A DNA stretch of 6,739 bases from Escherichia coli. Its GTDB lineage: Bacteria > Pseudomonadota > Gammaproteobacteria > Enterobacterales > Enterobacteriaceae. Numbering within the stretch: the first letter of the stretch is position 1; each line of letters starts with the position of its first letter. Below, one piece after another: positions 3,096 through 6,739 of this stretch. The notes under the pieces are model-generated. The model was not told where the DNA came from. It did no database searches and saw nothing but the letters and a program-made list of their open reading frames with translations. The stretch lies in NCBI RefSeq assembly GCF_003334255.1, contig NZ_QOWU01000099.1. The stretch is one strand, 5' to 3'. The position numbers were made by a program, and so were the translations under genes.

Positions 3096-3689
3096 TCAAC
3101 CGTTGTGCGGTATGCCAGGAGCAACGTACTGATCCATCAGATCCGTCAGTGCTGCGCTCTGCTTCTGACGGTTGATGATCCATTCCTCCAGCTCTTTTTC
3201 TGATTTCCGTTTCAGATTCTCCGTCCAGTCGTCAAGGCAGTTTCCGGTCATTAAATCAAGCCAGCAAAGCCAGACCAGTTTGAGGCGCAACTCCGTGCCA
3301 CCAAACTGACGGAAGAGGCTAATCAGTTTATTTGCCAGAGAACGCTGCCTCAGACGTTCACATTCAGACAGGAGAATGCCTTCCAGCATCGGATGATGAA
3401 CCAGCAGATGTTCACTGGTGCATAAATTCACGATCAGATCATCATCCAGGGGCGGCGTGGCCCGTTTGTCAGGGCCATAAATCAGCCGGTGCAGGCTCTG
3501 GGGTACGATGGCAATCTCCGGTTTTTCACCATTGAATGACACCCACCCGGGCGTCAGATTATGGAAGTAGTAGATATTCGGATGACACACGCCCCAGGAT
3601 ACGGCGTGCCGGGTGAAGCCGGTCAGCCATTTCTGGTAGCTTTCGTGGAGCAGCTCGTAACGGGTCTGATACTGTGGTTTCATTTTCAT
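3096..3689 (-). CDS. hypothetical protein, 197 aa, unknown function, immediately downstream of alpA
   Basis: Track ORF 3096..3830 (-). The first 47 codons are low-complexity and overlap the alpA 3' end, so I trim to the internal MKMKPQYQ start. GAGGA (reverse complement of 3692-3696) lies 2-3 nt before ATG 3689 and 8-9 nt before ATG 3683, so 3683 is an equally plausible start. The body is protein-like, but I recognise no family or catalytic motif. Confidence 0.7.
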   Translation of the reverse strand: MKMKPQYQTRYELLHESYQKWLTGFTRHAVSWGVCHPNIYYFHNLTPGWVSFNGEKPEIAIVPQSLHRLIYGPDKRATPPLDDDLIVNLCTSEHLLVHHPMLEGILLSECERLRQRSLANKLISLFRQFGGTELRLKLVWLCWLDLMTGNCLDDWTENLKRKSEKELEEWIINRQKQSAALTDLMDQYVAPGIPHNG

Positions 3690-3710
3690 ATTCCTCACGG
3701 GGGATAACAG

Positions 3711-3752
3711 GCAGCAGAACGCCGCCGGCAGGCCGGAGACTGCGTCTGCTGC
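3711..3752 (-). promoter_or_regulatory. GC-rich intergenic hairpin between alpA and the downstream 197-aa gene
   Basis: GCAGCAGA at 3711-3718 pairs with TCTGCTGC at 3745-3752; the stem can extend to about 11 bp with one bulge, and the loop holds a CCGGC/GCCGG sub-palindrome. No U-tract follows on the minus strand, so read-through into the 197-aa gene is likely. Confidence 0.35.
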
Positions 3753-3769
3753 AGATGAACGGTTAAGAA

Positions 3770-3976
3770 TTACGGACGGGACTGTGCAATACGCGCCTGC
3801 AGCCAGGCTTCCACTTCGCTTTTCAGCCATCGGGAGCTGCGGCCCAGCTTGATGGGCGCAGGAAAGTCACCATCCTTGATGAGTTTGTAAAACCACTTAT
3901 CGGTCAGGCCGGTCAGTTGAGTGATAAATGCCATGTCGACCATCTGGTCATCCATCAGTGAAACTGGGGTGATCAT
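3770..3976 (-). CDS. alpA: AlpA-family phage-type transcriptional regulator (excisionase-like DNA-binding protein), 68 aa
   Basis: Track ORF 3770..4048 (-), trimmed to the internal ATG at 3976, which is preceded by GGAGG (reverse complement of 3986-3990) with a 9-nt spacer. The sequence FITQLTGLTDKWFYKLIKDGDFPAPIKLGRSSRWLKSEVEAWLQARI matches the AlpA family pattern (TGL...W.Y.LI..G.FP.PIKLG.R...W...EVE.WL) and the size is typical. Confidence 0.8.
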   Translation of the reverse strand: MITPVSLMDDQMVDMAFITQLTGLTDKWFYKLIKDGDFPAPIKLGRSSRWLKSEVEAWLQARIAQSRP

Positions 3977-4102
3977 GAGAATGTTCCTCCGGATGTTGTT
4001 AAACCAGCCGGTGTGGTCATGAAAACAACGCACCACCTTCACCGGCATAACAACCGGGGAGAAACGTAAAAAATAATCGGGAATGTGACCGCCAGGAGAT
4101 AA

Positions 4103-4265: not shown

Positions 4266-5196
4266 GGCAGCCCGTGCCTTGTGGGCAGGGACAGGTATCA
4301 CTGGTGGGATAAGGCTGTCTGATTGGTATTATAAATATAAGAAGTTATCAGAGAGTAACGTAAAGGATTTGCCAGAATAACCTAAGAGAGTAAATCTCTC
4401 CGGTAACAGAGCGCTGTGAAGCATTCTGTATCAGAGTGCAAATACATGAACGCTGATGCGTAAAATCAGCAGTGACACGCCAGCTCCCCCTGTGCCCATT
4501 CCTGTATAAGACATGAACTGAGCGTATTAATGCTCCTGCCCTGAGACTGAGCCGGTGAGTGAGGGGCTGAGAAATCCCTCTTGACACTGCTCTAAACCAG
4601 AAATACTTCCCCGGTTGTTGCGGTGCGTCCGGATCCCCGATAACGGAACACTAAGGCTGTATTGCGGGACACCAGGTAAGTGGCAGCCCGTAATACGTCA
4701 GGAGACGCGGGAAAAGTGAATTCCCACACGCGTTATAAACTTACCCTAGCGGAGCTGGAAGCCTTTAACTCTGCCGTTGACAACCGGCTGGCAGAACTAA
4801 CCATGAACAAACTTTACGATCGCGTTCCGGCTTCTGTCCGGAAATATGTCACCTGAACGTTCGGTAATCACAGCGGTATTGCGCCAGGTGTTATCTGCTC
4901 TGTGTGATTCTTTTTAGGGTTTCTCAGATTGTTAAAAGCTGAATATGTTCCTGTTGTCGGGAACCAGGATAATACAGGGAACATTAAGCGGTATAGCGAC
5001 AACAAAGCATTCGAAATCAAAAGGGAATGGTGTACGGAGTTGTGGGCAGTAATGGGCCGATTTTCGGGCATTACCGATCTCTGTTGAGGTTTTCTCGTAT
5101 TTGCCGGGGATCCGGTGCGTTACTGTCTGGCACAGCAAACGCAGAGGTGGCGGGGCGCTCTGCTCCGCTGATTCCGGATAATCCCTCCCCTGTAAC

Positions 5197-5509: not shown

Positions 5510-5597
5510 TTGCCTGGTTGGAGATCACTTCAGGGACTCTGCGCATTTTTTACGGCGTGGTTAATCCGTATGAACGAAACCATACGGAGATTTAACC

Positions 5598-6167
5598 ATG
5601 ACCTACAAATGCAACCCCTTCTGGCAGCAACGTATTCGTGAGACGGTGCTGCACGCACTGGATGTTCATCCCCGTCTGACGGCATTGCGGGTTGATCTGC
5701 GTCTCCCGGATGTACCGGCAGCAACGGACGCGGCTGTGATATCCCGCTTCATCAATGCCCTGAAAGCCCGAATCGACGCTTACCAGAAACGTAAGCATCG
5801 GGAAGATAAACGCGTGCATTCCTCGACCCTGCATTACGCCTGGGCCAGGGAGTTCGGGGAGCTTAAAGGCAAAAAACACTATCAACTGCTGCTGCTGGTC
5901 AACCGGGATACCTGGTGTCGTGCAGGCGATTACCGCGCTCCGGGGTCACTGGCCGGGATGATTAAACAGGCCTGGTGCAGTGCCCTGGGGGTGGATGCCG
6001 GATGTTATGCCACGCTGGTGCATTTTCCGGTCAGGCCGGCGGTGTGGCTGGAACGCGATGATGATGCTGGTTTACGGGATATGCTGAAGCGTGCTGACTA
6101 TCTCGCGAAAGAGTACACCAAAGTCAACGGTACCGGTGAGCGCAATTTTGGCTGTAGCCGGAGTTGA
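5598..6167 (+). CDS. YagK/YfjJ-family protein (inovirus Gp2-like), 189 aa
   Basis: ORF 5598..6167 with GGAG at 5586-5589 and an 8-nt spacer to the ATG. Motifs RVDLRLP, VISRFINALKARI, HYAWAREF, HYQLLLLVNRD, LVHFP and the C-terminal NFGCS match what I recall of E. coli YagK/YfjJ proteins. Family call is from memory, not a search. Confidence 0.75.
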   Translation: MTYKCNPFWQQRIRETVLHALDVHPRLTALRVDLRLPDVPAATDAAVISRFINALKARIDAYQKRKHREDKRVHSSTLHYAWAREFGELKGKKHYQLLLLVNRDTWCRAGDYRAPGSLAGMIKQAWCSALGVDAGCYATLVHFPVRPAVWLERDDDAGLRDMLKRADYLAKEYTKVNGTGERNFGCSRS

Positions 6168-6425
6168 ACACGACAGGCGCACCAATACCCGGCAAACCAA
6201 AAGTATGGGTTGTTGTCTGGCGGCAACGATGTATCCACTCGCCCACTGACTGTTTTTTACGTCAGTGTTCCATTGTGTGACAACCACAGTGCTGTAACAG
6301 CAACCAGCCTGCTTTACCCAAACTCCAGTCCAGATTTTAACTGAACCGCCATTCACACCTGACCACACTGCCCGTACCGGGACGGCTGTTGCCTGCGTGT
6401 CGTCTGGCGGCTGAGGAATATGACT

Positions 6426-6739
6426 ATGTACGCTAAATCCTTTCTCGCACTTGATGGCAACGGGCGTCTGACGGGTGCCCGTACCGCACAGACTGCACCT
6501 TACGATCGCTACACTTGCCACCTCTGCGGCAGTGCGCTCAGATACCACCCGCAATACGACACTGAGCGTCCCTGGTTTGAACACACTGACGACGGGCTGA
6601 CAGCGCACGGTCAGCAGTGTCCTTATGTCAGACCGGAACGCAGGGAGGTACGCTTGATTAAGCGTCTGCAGCAATTCGTACCGGATGCCTTACCCGTGGT
6701 GCGTAAAGCCAGCTGGCACTGCAGACAATGTCACCACGA
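6426..6739 (+). CDS. Zn-ribbon protein, 5' part only (truncated by window edge), CoiA-like N-terminal pattern
   Basis: Reading frame open from ATG 6426 to the window end (104 codons, no stop). GAGGA at 6413-6417 gives an 8-nt spacer to ATG 6426; the ATG at 6420 is too close to it. The translation MYAKSFLALDGNGRLTGARTAQTAPYDRYTCHLCGSALRYHP..RPWFEHTDDG...CPYV...WHCRQCHH has CxxC, WFEH and a second CxxC, resembling the CoiA-type N-terminal zinc finger (CxxC ... HFxH ... C). Resemblance is by eye. Confidence 0.6.
   Translation, partial: MYAKSFLALDGNGRLTGARTAQTAPYDRYTCHLCGSALRYHPQYDTERPWFEHTDDGLTAHGQQCPYVRPERREVRLIKRLQQFVPDALPVVRKASWHCRQCHH

Follow-up and report, generated by a model that had tools for sequence, protein, structure and literature searches.

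The last two genes of a 6,739-nt stretch of Escherichia coli DNA (here called the window) lie on the same strand, separated by a long spacer, and raise the question of whether they work together. The original prediction took the upstream protein to be replication-initiator-like and the downstream one to be a putative CoiA-like nuclease, with its catalytic domain past the end of the window, the two possibly forming a functional module. Our best explanation, to which as a whole we would give an even chance, is that these genes stand at the end of an island core, that the spacer is the control region of a zinc-ribbon operon, and that the zinc proteins are putative nucleic-acid-binding accessories, with no nuclease involved.

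The locus and its island

The region belongs to an Enterobacterales integrative island of the CP4-57/P4-like type, where it forms the distal end of the conserved core; genes for YfjI, AlpA, a GTPase, an antirestriction protein, and RadC lie nearby. About 70% of complete E. coli genomes contain CP4/P4-like islands, frequently as several copies, and these islands carry phage-defense and virulence genes as cargo; a Rep-like gene followed by a zinc gene is an ordinary arrangement, very widespread in enterobacteria. Islands with an alpA and Gp2-like core have been described (bioRxiv 10.1101/2024.08.29.610337): like CP4-57, the Pseudomonas I23, I44, and I55 tmRNA/tRNA islands (int-alpA-Gp2-like-RadC core, defense cargo) have this core beside variable cargo, as here. 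That description does not mention zinc-ribbon genes, and the zinc pair seems to be an Enterobacterales addition to such islands.

The upstream Rep-like gene

The first gene (5598–6167, + strand, 189 aa) is of the YagK/YfjJ or “inovirus Gp2 family” type, exactly at the coordinates first proposed for it: its product covers the Pfam profile YagK_YfjJ_C (PF11726) over its full length (model positions 3–170 of 170, E 3.6e-44). The description of this protein as replication-initiator-like is borne out by its fold, a Rep-type α/β fold with a central antiparallel sheet, and the protein (~190 aa) has both this fold and motifs resembling those of HUH replication initiators. In the window copy these motifs are LRVDLRLP, HYQ-LLLL (HYH in relatives), and YLAK; among homologues, HYH is present in 113/120 and YLAK in 80/120, while other paralogues, many of them in these clusters, have neither the His nor the Tyr residues. 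HUQ variants are also found in circovirus Rep.

YagK and YfjJ of the E. coli K-12 cryptic prophages CP4-6 and CP4-57 share the domain, the island type, and the neighbors alpA and yfjI. They differ in that the HYH motif reads HYQ in the window copy, and in that the abpAB defense genes, not zinc genes, come after yfjJ in K-12. A T-run downstream of K-12 yfjJ appears by eye to belong to an ordinary terminator (a stem, then a T-rich run), and was therefore left uncounted. Compared with HUH initiators and nickases (SIRV1 ORF119, parvovirus NS1/AAV Rep, pMV158 RepB, circovirus-type Rep), YagK has no helicase domain, any origin or nicking activity is putative, and several of its paralogues have lost the catalytic residues. 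In a second Rep-like subfamily, 8/8 members match REP_ORF2-G2P in Pfam; since the profile-profile score between the two subfamilies is weak (probability 3%, E 0.015), the link between them was taken from the Pfam matches. PHROGs places YagK only in a family of unknown function.

The downstream zinc-ribbon gene

The downstream open reading frame begins at ATG 6420 or ATG 6426, with an in-frame stop at 6360 upstream of both, and runs past the end of the window. The start is most likely at 6426, because a GAGGA at 6413–6417 fits it and because RefSeq and most homologues start with MYAKSF; given this start, the predicted 258-bp spacer (6168–6425) is right. The window then holds, from the start codon on, 104 complete codons and two bases of the 105th of a gene annotated as “putative zinc ribbon protein” (6426–6739, + strand), 127 aa in full.

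A complete copy of the gene, from an E. coli locus with 98.7% identity, encodes 127 aa with DUF7828 and Zn_ribbon_11 domains, so that the earlier call of a Zn-ribbon gene agrees with Pfam. DUF7828 (PF25165; E 9.1e-31, model positions 1–87 of 87) is encoded wholly within the window. The CxxC ... WFEH ... C pattern picked out originally is there as well (C33, C36, W52–H55, and C67 in 129-aa numbering), with C33, C36, H55, and C67 as the ligands of this domain. The C-terminal C4 zinc ribbon (PF11682) is matched at E 5.6e-9 by the 98.7% identical full-length copy; the window holds only its first CxxC. The product is a complete small protein of two zinc-binding modules, the C2HC-type DUF7828 and the C4 ribbon, with no catalytic domain. 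It is a member of the RefSeq “putative zinc ribbon protein” family (PF25165 + PF11682, formerly DUF3279; UniProt name Ybl85), with the same domains, length, and Cys/His ligands, and 91% identity to the commonest cluster. A second zinc gene, encoding a 141-aa paralogue, normally comes next, overlapping the first by 4 bp (13028–13411 and 13408–13833 in locus L001).

The AlphaFold model of the zinc protein (pLDDT 86) has no Foldseek match below E 1 in the PDB, and the 50 matches listed from AFDB50 are all from its own family. PHROGs gave only a family of unknown function for the second zinc protein, NCBIfam and PADLOC searches over all proteins returned nothing useful, and a literature search on the DUF7828/Zn_ribbon_11 family names found no functional study.

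The CoiA question

A Rep-like initiator paired with a CoiA-like nuclease, the catalytic domain lying beyond the window, was suggested by the cysteine and WFEH pattern. CoiA does have a small zinc finger at its N terminus (bioRxiv 10.1101/2024.02.06.579203), and CoiA (PF06054 with the CoiA_N finger PF25164) and the zinc protein share a small N-terminal CxxC ... aromatic-x-H finger. A minority of the family also match CoiA_N weakly: of 62 family representatives, 11 do so at E ≤ 0.1 and one at E ≤ 0.001 (best 3e-5). The likeness to a CoiA-type finger thus holds for the Cys/aromatic-His pattern but is weak at the level of the profile, the window protein having no CoiA_N match even at E ≤ 10, and the fourth finger ligand is probably Cys where CoiA has His.

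The nuclease domain expected further on is absent. The full protein stops at 127–129 aa, and a domain search of the complete frame, the check proposed at the outset, found the zinc ribbon and no nuclease. Neither the zinc protein nor any of the 62 representatives matches a Pfam nuclease family, the PD-(D/E)XK core (PF06054) included. The 340 close homologues (best 120 listed) are about 127–140 aa long, and the 225 more distant clusters, judged on the best 150 listed, are short as well. Only four proteins are longer, namely a false positive with heme repeats, a rare fusion, a duplication in tandem, and a degraded frame. Those 225 clusters came from a search of 1.8 billion proteins with the finger-domain profile; nearly all are short, and among the best 150 listed none is CoiA-like. 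The zinc protein is about one third as long as CoiA. Its gene lies in a mobile integrative island, and that of CoiA in the competence regulon. A CoiA-like nuclease at this locus is refuted by a protein that is complete without a nuclease domain; we regard a pairing with a nuclease as scarcely credible, and a wrong lead, that of a hidden nuclease, is removed.

Association of the two genes

The pairing itself is seen elsewhere, the two gene types being syntenic across genera. A co-occurrence check, also part of the original prediction, gave different answers in the two directions: the zinc gene has a Rep-like neighbor, but the Rep-like gene often has no zinc partner. In 16 of 19 species-representative loci, obtained by a genome-wide locus search with an orthologous alignment set, a Rep-like gene lies directly before the zinc gene or within about 1.5–2.3 kb of it; the three exceptions are truncated remnants, and every intact zinc gene examined adjoins a Rep-like gene. 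The same adjacency is found in four E. coli variants, in Klebsiella, Enterobacter, and Serratia contigs, and on one Klebsiella plasmid, and persists where the Rep-like gene is of another subfamily. The sole matching “phage” record is an unverified low-coverage contig. Many islands with the same Rep-like/AlpA pair have no zinc genes, which are therefore not needed for core function, and tight synteny within one mobile-island family may be inherited from a common ancestor and need not mean joint function.

The zinc genes might then be simply the first cargo genes, with a small phage-defense or anti-defense function unrelated to the Rep-like gene. They border variable, often defense-like cargo (McrB, SNF2/AAA/protease, methyltransferase), and their being dispensable in many islands would fit. 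Against this, PADLOC gives no match; the position and sequence of the zinc genes, unlike those of cargo, are conserved across genera together with the upstream region; and two rare fusion proteins (P0233 and P0288) join a zinc protein to a Rep-like domain. We consider a cargo role distinctly improbable.

The spacer

The spacer does contain the 7-bp hairpin originally proposed, displaced by one base (6244–6267, + strand, rather than 6243–6266): a perfect inverted repeat, CACTGAC / TGTTTTTTAC / GTCAGTG, with arms at 6244–6250 and 6261–6267 and a 10-nt loop. Such a hairpin is no more than chance would give: 17% of random 258-mers matched in composition have one, and there are 14 in the window. 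The stem shows no conservation (62.9% of cells pair, vs. 59.3% in shuffles, with 76 of 500 shuffles reaching 62.9%), and the hairpin was rejected as a conserved structure. It was also rejected as an intrinsic (Rho-independent) terminator, having no T-run after the stem, where the sequence is TTCCATTG; a terminator scan of 6168–6425 found none.

The loop lies inside an invariant box, GTTTTTTACG...GTGTGACAACCAC, and the spacer as a whole carries two non-coding blocks that are conserved across genera. Box 1 (GTTTTTTACG-N-CA ... CCATWGTGTGACAACCAC; 6252–6287, + strand) has invariant columns in E. coli, Enterobacter, Salmonella, Mixta, Enterobacillus, Klebsiella, and Citrobacter, regardless of the upstream Rep-like gene, and includes a conserved dyad, TGTG-N7-CACA. 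Box 2 is a 67-nt leader (CCGCCATTCAC ... GGGACGGCTG..GCCTGCGTGTCGTCTGGCGG; 6346–6412, + strand) directly 5′ of the ribosome-binding site. Pairwise identity across it averages 0.77 (0.87 when Serratia is left out), vs. 0.50 for third codon positions and 0.49–0.62 further upstream. This equals the conservation of first codon positions. With indels and no start codon, the leader is not coding. A structured, riboswitch-like RNA was rejected for it: the leader is not unusually stable (MFE z-score −0.07), the RNAalifold covariation term is −0.65, no position pair in either candidate helix has changed on both sides, and Rfam has no match to the window at E ≤ 1. Two further features seen by eye, a GG-N10-GC in the leader that resembles a sigma-54 site and a dyad, TCACAC/GTGTGA, are too poorly conserved or too short to claim.

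Box 1 contains (6253–6261) the third of three exact copies of TTTTTTACG in the window, where 0.069 would be expected (P about 5e-5). Another is upstream of alpA (4065–4073, − strand; alpA ORF 3770–4048, − strand, with the RefSeq start corresponding to about 3976), with TATGCC 14–15 nt further on, and another is 44 nt upstream of the yagK start (5546–5554, + strand), with TATGAA 14 nt further on. The motif thus precedes alpA, yagK, and the zinc gene in the same orientation, and the same three classes of site are present in other genera: the alpA-upstream box recurs in Klebsiella, Enterobacter, Salmonella, and Mixta loci, and the yagK type in Siccibacter, in Pectobacterium (relaxed TTTTTAC[GA]), and in Hafnia (the relaxed form with A).

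The RepB and circovirus origins, where Rep cuts single-stranded DNA in a hairpin loop, suggest another function for box 1: the hairpin with its invariant loop could serve the HUH Rep-like protein as nick site or origin. The HUH fold, the HYH and YxxK motifs of relatives, and the position of the box directly after the Rep-like gene are consistent with this, as is the variation of the stem, with a few compensatory changes, around a loop of invariant sequence; the box upstream of yagK is likewise a loop sequence, between the arms (CTGCGC/GCGTGG) of an imperfect hairpin. However, alpA is preceded by the same box without a hairpin, box orientation always follows the downstream gene, stem pairing is no better than in shuffled controls, and the His and Tyr are missing from many of the Rep-like paralogues. 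The box is also kept with the zinc gene under either of two very different upstream Rep-like subfamilies, which argues against a Rep-specific site. A nick site is in our judgment unlikely.

We prefer to see in the spacer a 5′ control region, comprising promoter/operator and leader, for a separate operon of zinc-ribbon genes, as the conserved blocks, the excess of TTTTTTACG, the lack of a terminator, and recombination breakpoints suggest. These breakpoints with other island variants fall inside the spacer, at about 6227, 6248, 6294, and 6339, and the proximal 80–175 bp travels with the zinc gene. Two observations speak against a control region: a sigma-70 scan of the spacer found no consensus promoter, and the spacing from TTTACG to a −10-like hexamer is only 14 nt. 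On this reading, a single factor acting at the TTTTTTACG boxes would co-regulate the zinc operon, alpA, and the Rep-like gene; AlpA itself or a host protein would be candidates.

A possible role for the zinc proteins

Several properties of the zinc proteins recall the Ogr/Delta-like zinc-finger transcription activators, which would make them switches for island or helper-phage genes. The island, which resembles P4, has int, alpA, and a YfjI helicase; the small zinc proteins come in tandem, much as P4 Delta consists of two or more Ogr-like units in a row; and box 1 holds the conserved dyad. On the other side, the Pfam Ogr_Delta profile is not matched even at E ≤ 10, the cysteine spacing differs, and the first zinc paralogue has no match in PHROGs. 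Such an identity is unlikely.

The zinc proteins are read here instead as putative nucleic-acid-binding accessories of the AlpA/Rep-like module: dispensable accessory or specificity factors, perhaps, of the island's excision-replication switch, with their genes placed just ahead of the variable cargo. A DNA-binding role is weakened by the lack of a structural neighbor in the PDB and by the acidity of one paralogue (pI 5.9).

In a stronger form of this proposal, which we hold only as a speculation with the chances well against it, the DUF7828 pair would form one co-regulated cassette with alpA and the HUH Rep-like gene, marked by TTTTTTACG boxes, and this cassette would be the induction/replication switch of the defense-carrying CP4/P4-like islands of enterobacteria. 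If so, the two zinc proteins would be accessories of a new kind, either directing an HUH protein to its site on the DNA or sensing, or activating in response to, a helper phage. The Rep-like gene, AlpA, and the zinc pair travel as a group with a common upstream motif, which gives testable handles on the switch of these islands.

Genes and island setting

The yagK-type gene of the window (5598-6167, + strand, 189 aa) is followed on the same strand by an ORF that begins at an ATG at either 6420 or 6426 and runs past the window end. Since a GAGGA at 6413-6417 is in good position for a start at 6426, the resulting MYAKSF beginning is that of the RefSeq annotation of near-identical loci and of most homologues, and there is a stop in this frame at 6360, the spacer between the two genes is taken as 6168-6425, the 258 bp originally predicted. 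A 200-aa antisense ORF (6072-6674, - strand) covers the spacer and the ends of both genes; it is very likely not a gene, because in L001, the best-matching locus in a complete E. coli genome (98.7% identity), it is broken in two, with pieces of 129 aa and 112 aa.

A 1340-bp region has matches in 3781 of 5426 complete E. coli genomes (median two places per genome, best identity 98.7%), and the whole window is matched at up to 97.3%. The neighbors in L001 (YfjI, an AlpA-type regulator, an Hha-like protein, a GTPase, Ag43, DUF932, an antirestriction protein, and a RadC/JAB protein) are those of a CP4-57/CP4-44-type integrative island. The window itself includes a 517-aa ORF matching a phage DNA-helicase family (1205-2758), an alpA ORF matching AlpA/excisionase families (3770-4048, - strand), and, between alpA and yagK, a 58-aa ORF (4680-4856, + strand) annotated in L001 as "Hha/YmoA family nucleoid-associated regulatory protein." Downstream of alpA, a 244-aa ORF (3096-3830, - strand) has no match in PHROG or PADLOC. 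Its product is homologous to a conserved 197-aa protein whose gene, in other genera, separates alpA from the Rep-like gene; it is another uncharacterised core gene.

The downstream zinc-ribbon protein

The original prediction likened the downstream protein to CoiA, with a nuclease domain expected beyond the window. In L001 the ORF is complete, at 129 aa counted from the first ATG (127 aa in RefSeq, as a "putative zinc ribbon protein"), and Pfam assigns it DUF7828 (residues 4-89, E 9.1e-31) and Zn_ribbon_11 (residues 96-125, E 5.6e-9); even with a cutoff of E ≤ 10 it assigns neither CoiA nor any nuclease family. The nuclease domain is thus absent, from this protein and from its family: in a per-member Pfam scan of 62 representatives, DUF7828 was found in 61, Zn_ribbon_11 in 43, and any nuclease family in none. 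CoiA is described with a small putative C2H2 finger preceding its PD-(D/E)XK core (bioRxiv 10.1101/2024.02.06.579203; PMC1189080), and the resemblance in pattern is real but marginal, CoiA_N being detected in one representative at E ≤ 0.001 (best 3e-5) and in 11 at E ≤ 0.1. The conserved residues, C33, C36, F53, (E54), H55, and C67, followed by C101, C104, C114, and C117, indicate a putative C2HC finger (C33, C36, H55, C67) and a C4 ribbon.

A word-indexed search found 340 homologues, of which the best 120 share the two-domain make-up, measure about 127-140 aa, and come from Enterobacterales throughout. A profile of the N-terminal domain reached just 225 clusters among 1.84 billion representative proteins, the best 150 being almost all short. 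Four longer proteins appeared in the homologue searches: a false positive with heme repeats, a tandem duplication, a protein of 203 aa that ends in what resembles a degraded frame, and the fusion P0233. The AlphaFold model is confident (pLDDT 86); it has no PDB neighbor below E 1, and its 50 listed AFDB50 matches are members of its own family throughout, under such names as Ybl85, DUF3279, and a spurious "RNA polymerase beta subunit."

The zinc genes are paired in most loci. In L001 the second encodes a paralogue of 141 aa built on the same two modules, and overlaps the end of the first by 4 bp. Downstream of the pair there is often a further YagK-type gene without the His and Tyr residues; in L001 the stretch beyond the two zinc genes (14082-16193) is a tandem array in which the cassette (alpA, Rep-like gene, and zinc genes) recurs in decayed form: a fragment of YagK, a YagK paralogue of 188 aa that lacks the His/Tyr motifs, a pseudogene in which an AlpA-like part is joined to a piece of zinc ribbon, and a YagK gene with a frameshift. 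Fusions of the two kinds of protein are known from single records, P0233 (454 aa; L034 2797-4161, Logan SRR28251006), a zinc protein with a degenerate Rep-like C-terminus (hhalign E 6.4e-4, probability 28%), and P0288 (279 aa, E. coli), with PF11726, PF25165, and PF11682 in one protein; these could be real, or artefacts of assembly or frameshift.

The upstream Rep-like gene

The description of the upstream protein as replication-initiator-like is borne out by its fold. It matches Pfam YagK_YfjJ_C from end to end (E 3.6e-44) and REP_ORF2-G2P weakly, and its AlphaFold model (pLDDT 85, from 27 homologues) has the HUH fold. In the sequence, LRVDLRLP, H-Y-Q with LLLL after it, and YLAK come in the order expected. 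The HUH motif of the window copy (5877-5885, codons 94-96) is HYQ, while among the 120 best homologues HYH is found in 113 and HYQ in none; the change at the second metal-binding histidine is therefore private to this copy, and may be inactivating or a tolerated HUQ variant. The yagK part of the locus, up to window position ~6235, also occurs in L041 (OR844780.1, 66-902), a 4468-bp, low-coverage "UNVERIFIED_ORG" phage record, where it is probably host DNA in the phage preparation.

Co-occurrence of the two genes

In a species-level scan (one genome per species), 16 of 19 zinc-gene loci have a Rep-like gene on the same strand, directly upstream or within ~1.5-2.3 kb; the other three (Erwinia, Citrobacter, and one metagenome-assembled genome) are truncated zinc-gene remnants. 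The arrangement also occurs in Klebsiella, Enterobacter, and Serratia contigs, in four divergent E. coli variants, and as a whole cassette (YagK - AlpA - Zn - Zn - YagK') on the Klebsiella pneumoniae IncFIB/IncHI1B plasmid NZ_CP110517.1 (73958-76674). The Rep-like gene is of two quite different kinds, that of the window and a second, of ~190 aa, with invariant LR.D, H..H.H..F, and Y..K motifs. All eight tested members of the second match REP_ORF2-G2P at E ≤ 0.001, and seven match YagK_YfjJ_C at E ≤ 0.1; compared profile to profile, the two kinds are weakly linked.

The proposed pairing holds in one direction: Rep-like genes often lack a zinc partner. K-12 yfjJ is followed by abpAB instead, and loci of Rouxiella, Pectobacterium, and Edwardsiella have YagK-AlpA-cargo without a zinc gene; Klebsiella variicola has YagK-AlpA-Zn-cargo. 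This makes the zinc genes a dispensable extra, always attached to the AlpA/Rep-like core. They could themselves be cargo, except that their position is too conserved; what follows them is variable and often defence-like (McrB; SNF2 with AAA and S8 protease; DNA methyltransferase; arsenic resistance). Five loci differ in the defence-like cargo just after the Rep-like/zinc genes (L002 6609-12387; L030 4758-6193; L035 5426-7570; L039 5606-7570; L033 6352-12356), the kinds seen being SNF2 helicase with AAA and S8 protease, McrB, OLD-type ATPase with UvrD, DNA methyltransferase, and K-12 abpAB with rnlAB.

Conserved blocks and repeated boxes in the spacer

The predicted spacer hairpin is present, one base from its proposed position (arms 6244-6250 and 6261-6267, seven perfect pairs, loop TGTTTTTTAC), but is no more frequent than by chance: such a hairpin occurs in 17% of random 258-mers of the same composition, and there are 14 in the window. 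On its own it is unremarkable. No T-run follows it, and a terminator scan of 6168-6425 found nothing. Nor is the stem conserved: over 10 distinct sequences, 62.9% of cells pair vs. 59.3% in shuffles (a level attained by 76 of 500 shuffles), with a few compensatory changes.

Conservation across genera extends into the non-coding DNA ahead of the zinc gene. In BLAST searches against all fetched loci, homology starts at ~6246, 6338, or 6368, depending on the locus, and E. coli variants have breakpoints at ~6227, 6248, 6294, and 6339. In alignments, a first block (6252-6287), which includes the hairpin loop, consists of GTTTTTTACG, a few variable bases, and CCATWGTGTGACAACCAC; its columns show no variation from E. 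coli through to Enterobacillus, regardless of the Rep-like gene in front, and in loci of the second Rep type it begins 3-10 nt past the stop codon of that gene. The second block, a 67-nt leader (6346-6412) that runs up to the ribosome-binding site, has a mean pairwise identity of 0.77 over 12 lineages (0.87 without Serratia); the values for comparison are 0.50 for third and 0.86 for first codon positions, and 0.49-0.62 for the sequence further upstream. A coding function is ruled out by indels and the lack of a conserved start codon. Nothing points to a structured RNA: the leader has no Rfam match, an MFE z-score of -0.07, and negligible covariation; in its two candidate helices 81-90% of cells pair, yet these never changed on both sides.

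Within the first block is one of three exact copies in the window of TTTTTTACG (0.069 expected, Poisson P ~5e-5), each oriented as the gene after it: 4065-4073 (- strand), upstream of alpA; 5546-5554, 44 nt before the yagK start; and 6253-6261, upstream of the zinc gene. About 14 nt downstream of these are TATGCC, TATGAA, and TGTGAC, respectively. The same three classes of site are found in other genera, in places in the relaxed form TTTTTTACA. The invariant loop might possibly be a Rep nick site; against this, the box tracks the gene downstream of it, not the type of Rep, and also stands upstream of alpA. The pattern is that of a putative shared promoter or operator, although it does not fit the sigma-70 consensus. 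The spacer also has two copies of GTCTGGCGG (6215-6223 and 6402-6410), with a variant GTCTGACGG in the coding start (6466-6474) and a similar CCTGGCGG upstream of the alpA box; this repeat could be a candidate protein-binding site.

Possible roles

The spacer would then be the control region of a separate zinc-ribbon operon, which the shared boxes suggest may be co-regulated with alpA and the Rep-like gene. AlpA is the key activator of excision in related satellites (PMC10803314), and in Pseudomonas an alpA and Gp2-like pair belongs to the core proposed for islands that carry defence genes (bioRxiv 10.1101/2024.08.29.610337). The zinc proteins may be nucleic-acid-binding accessory factors of the island's excision-replication switch. 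They could alternatively be Ogr/Delta-like activators, for which there is no sequence support. No study of the function of either the yagK-type or the zinc family was found in the literature searched.

Both genes belong to catalogued families and carry these annotations in thousands of genomes, and the finding is one more ordinary case of a known type of island. The value of the finding lies in correcting the idea of a nuclease, and in providing the boxes and the cassette as testable handles.
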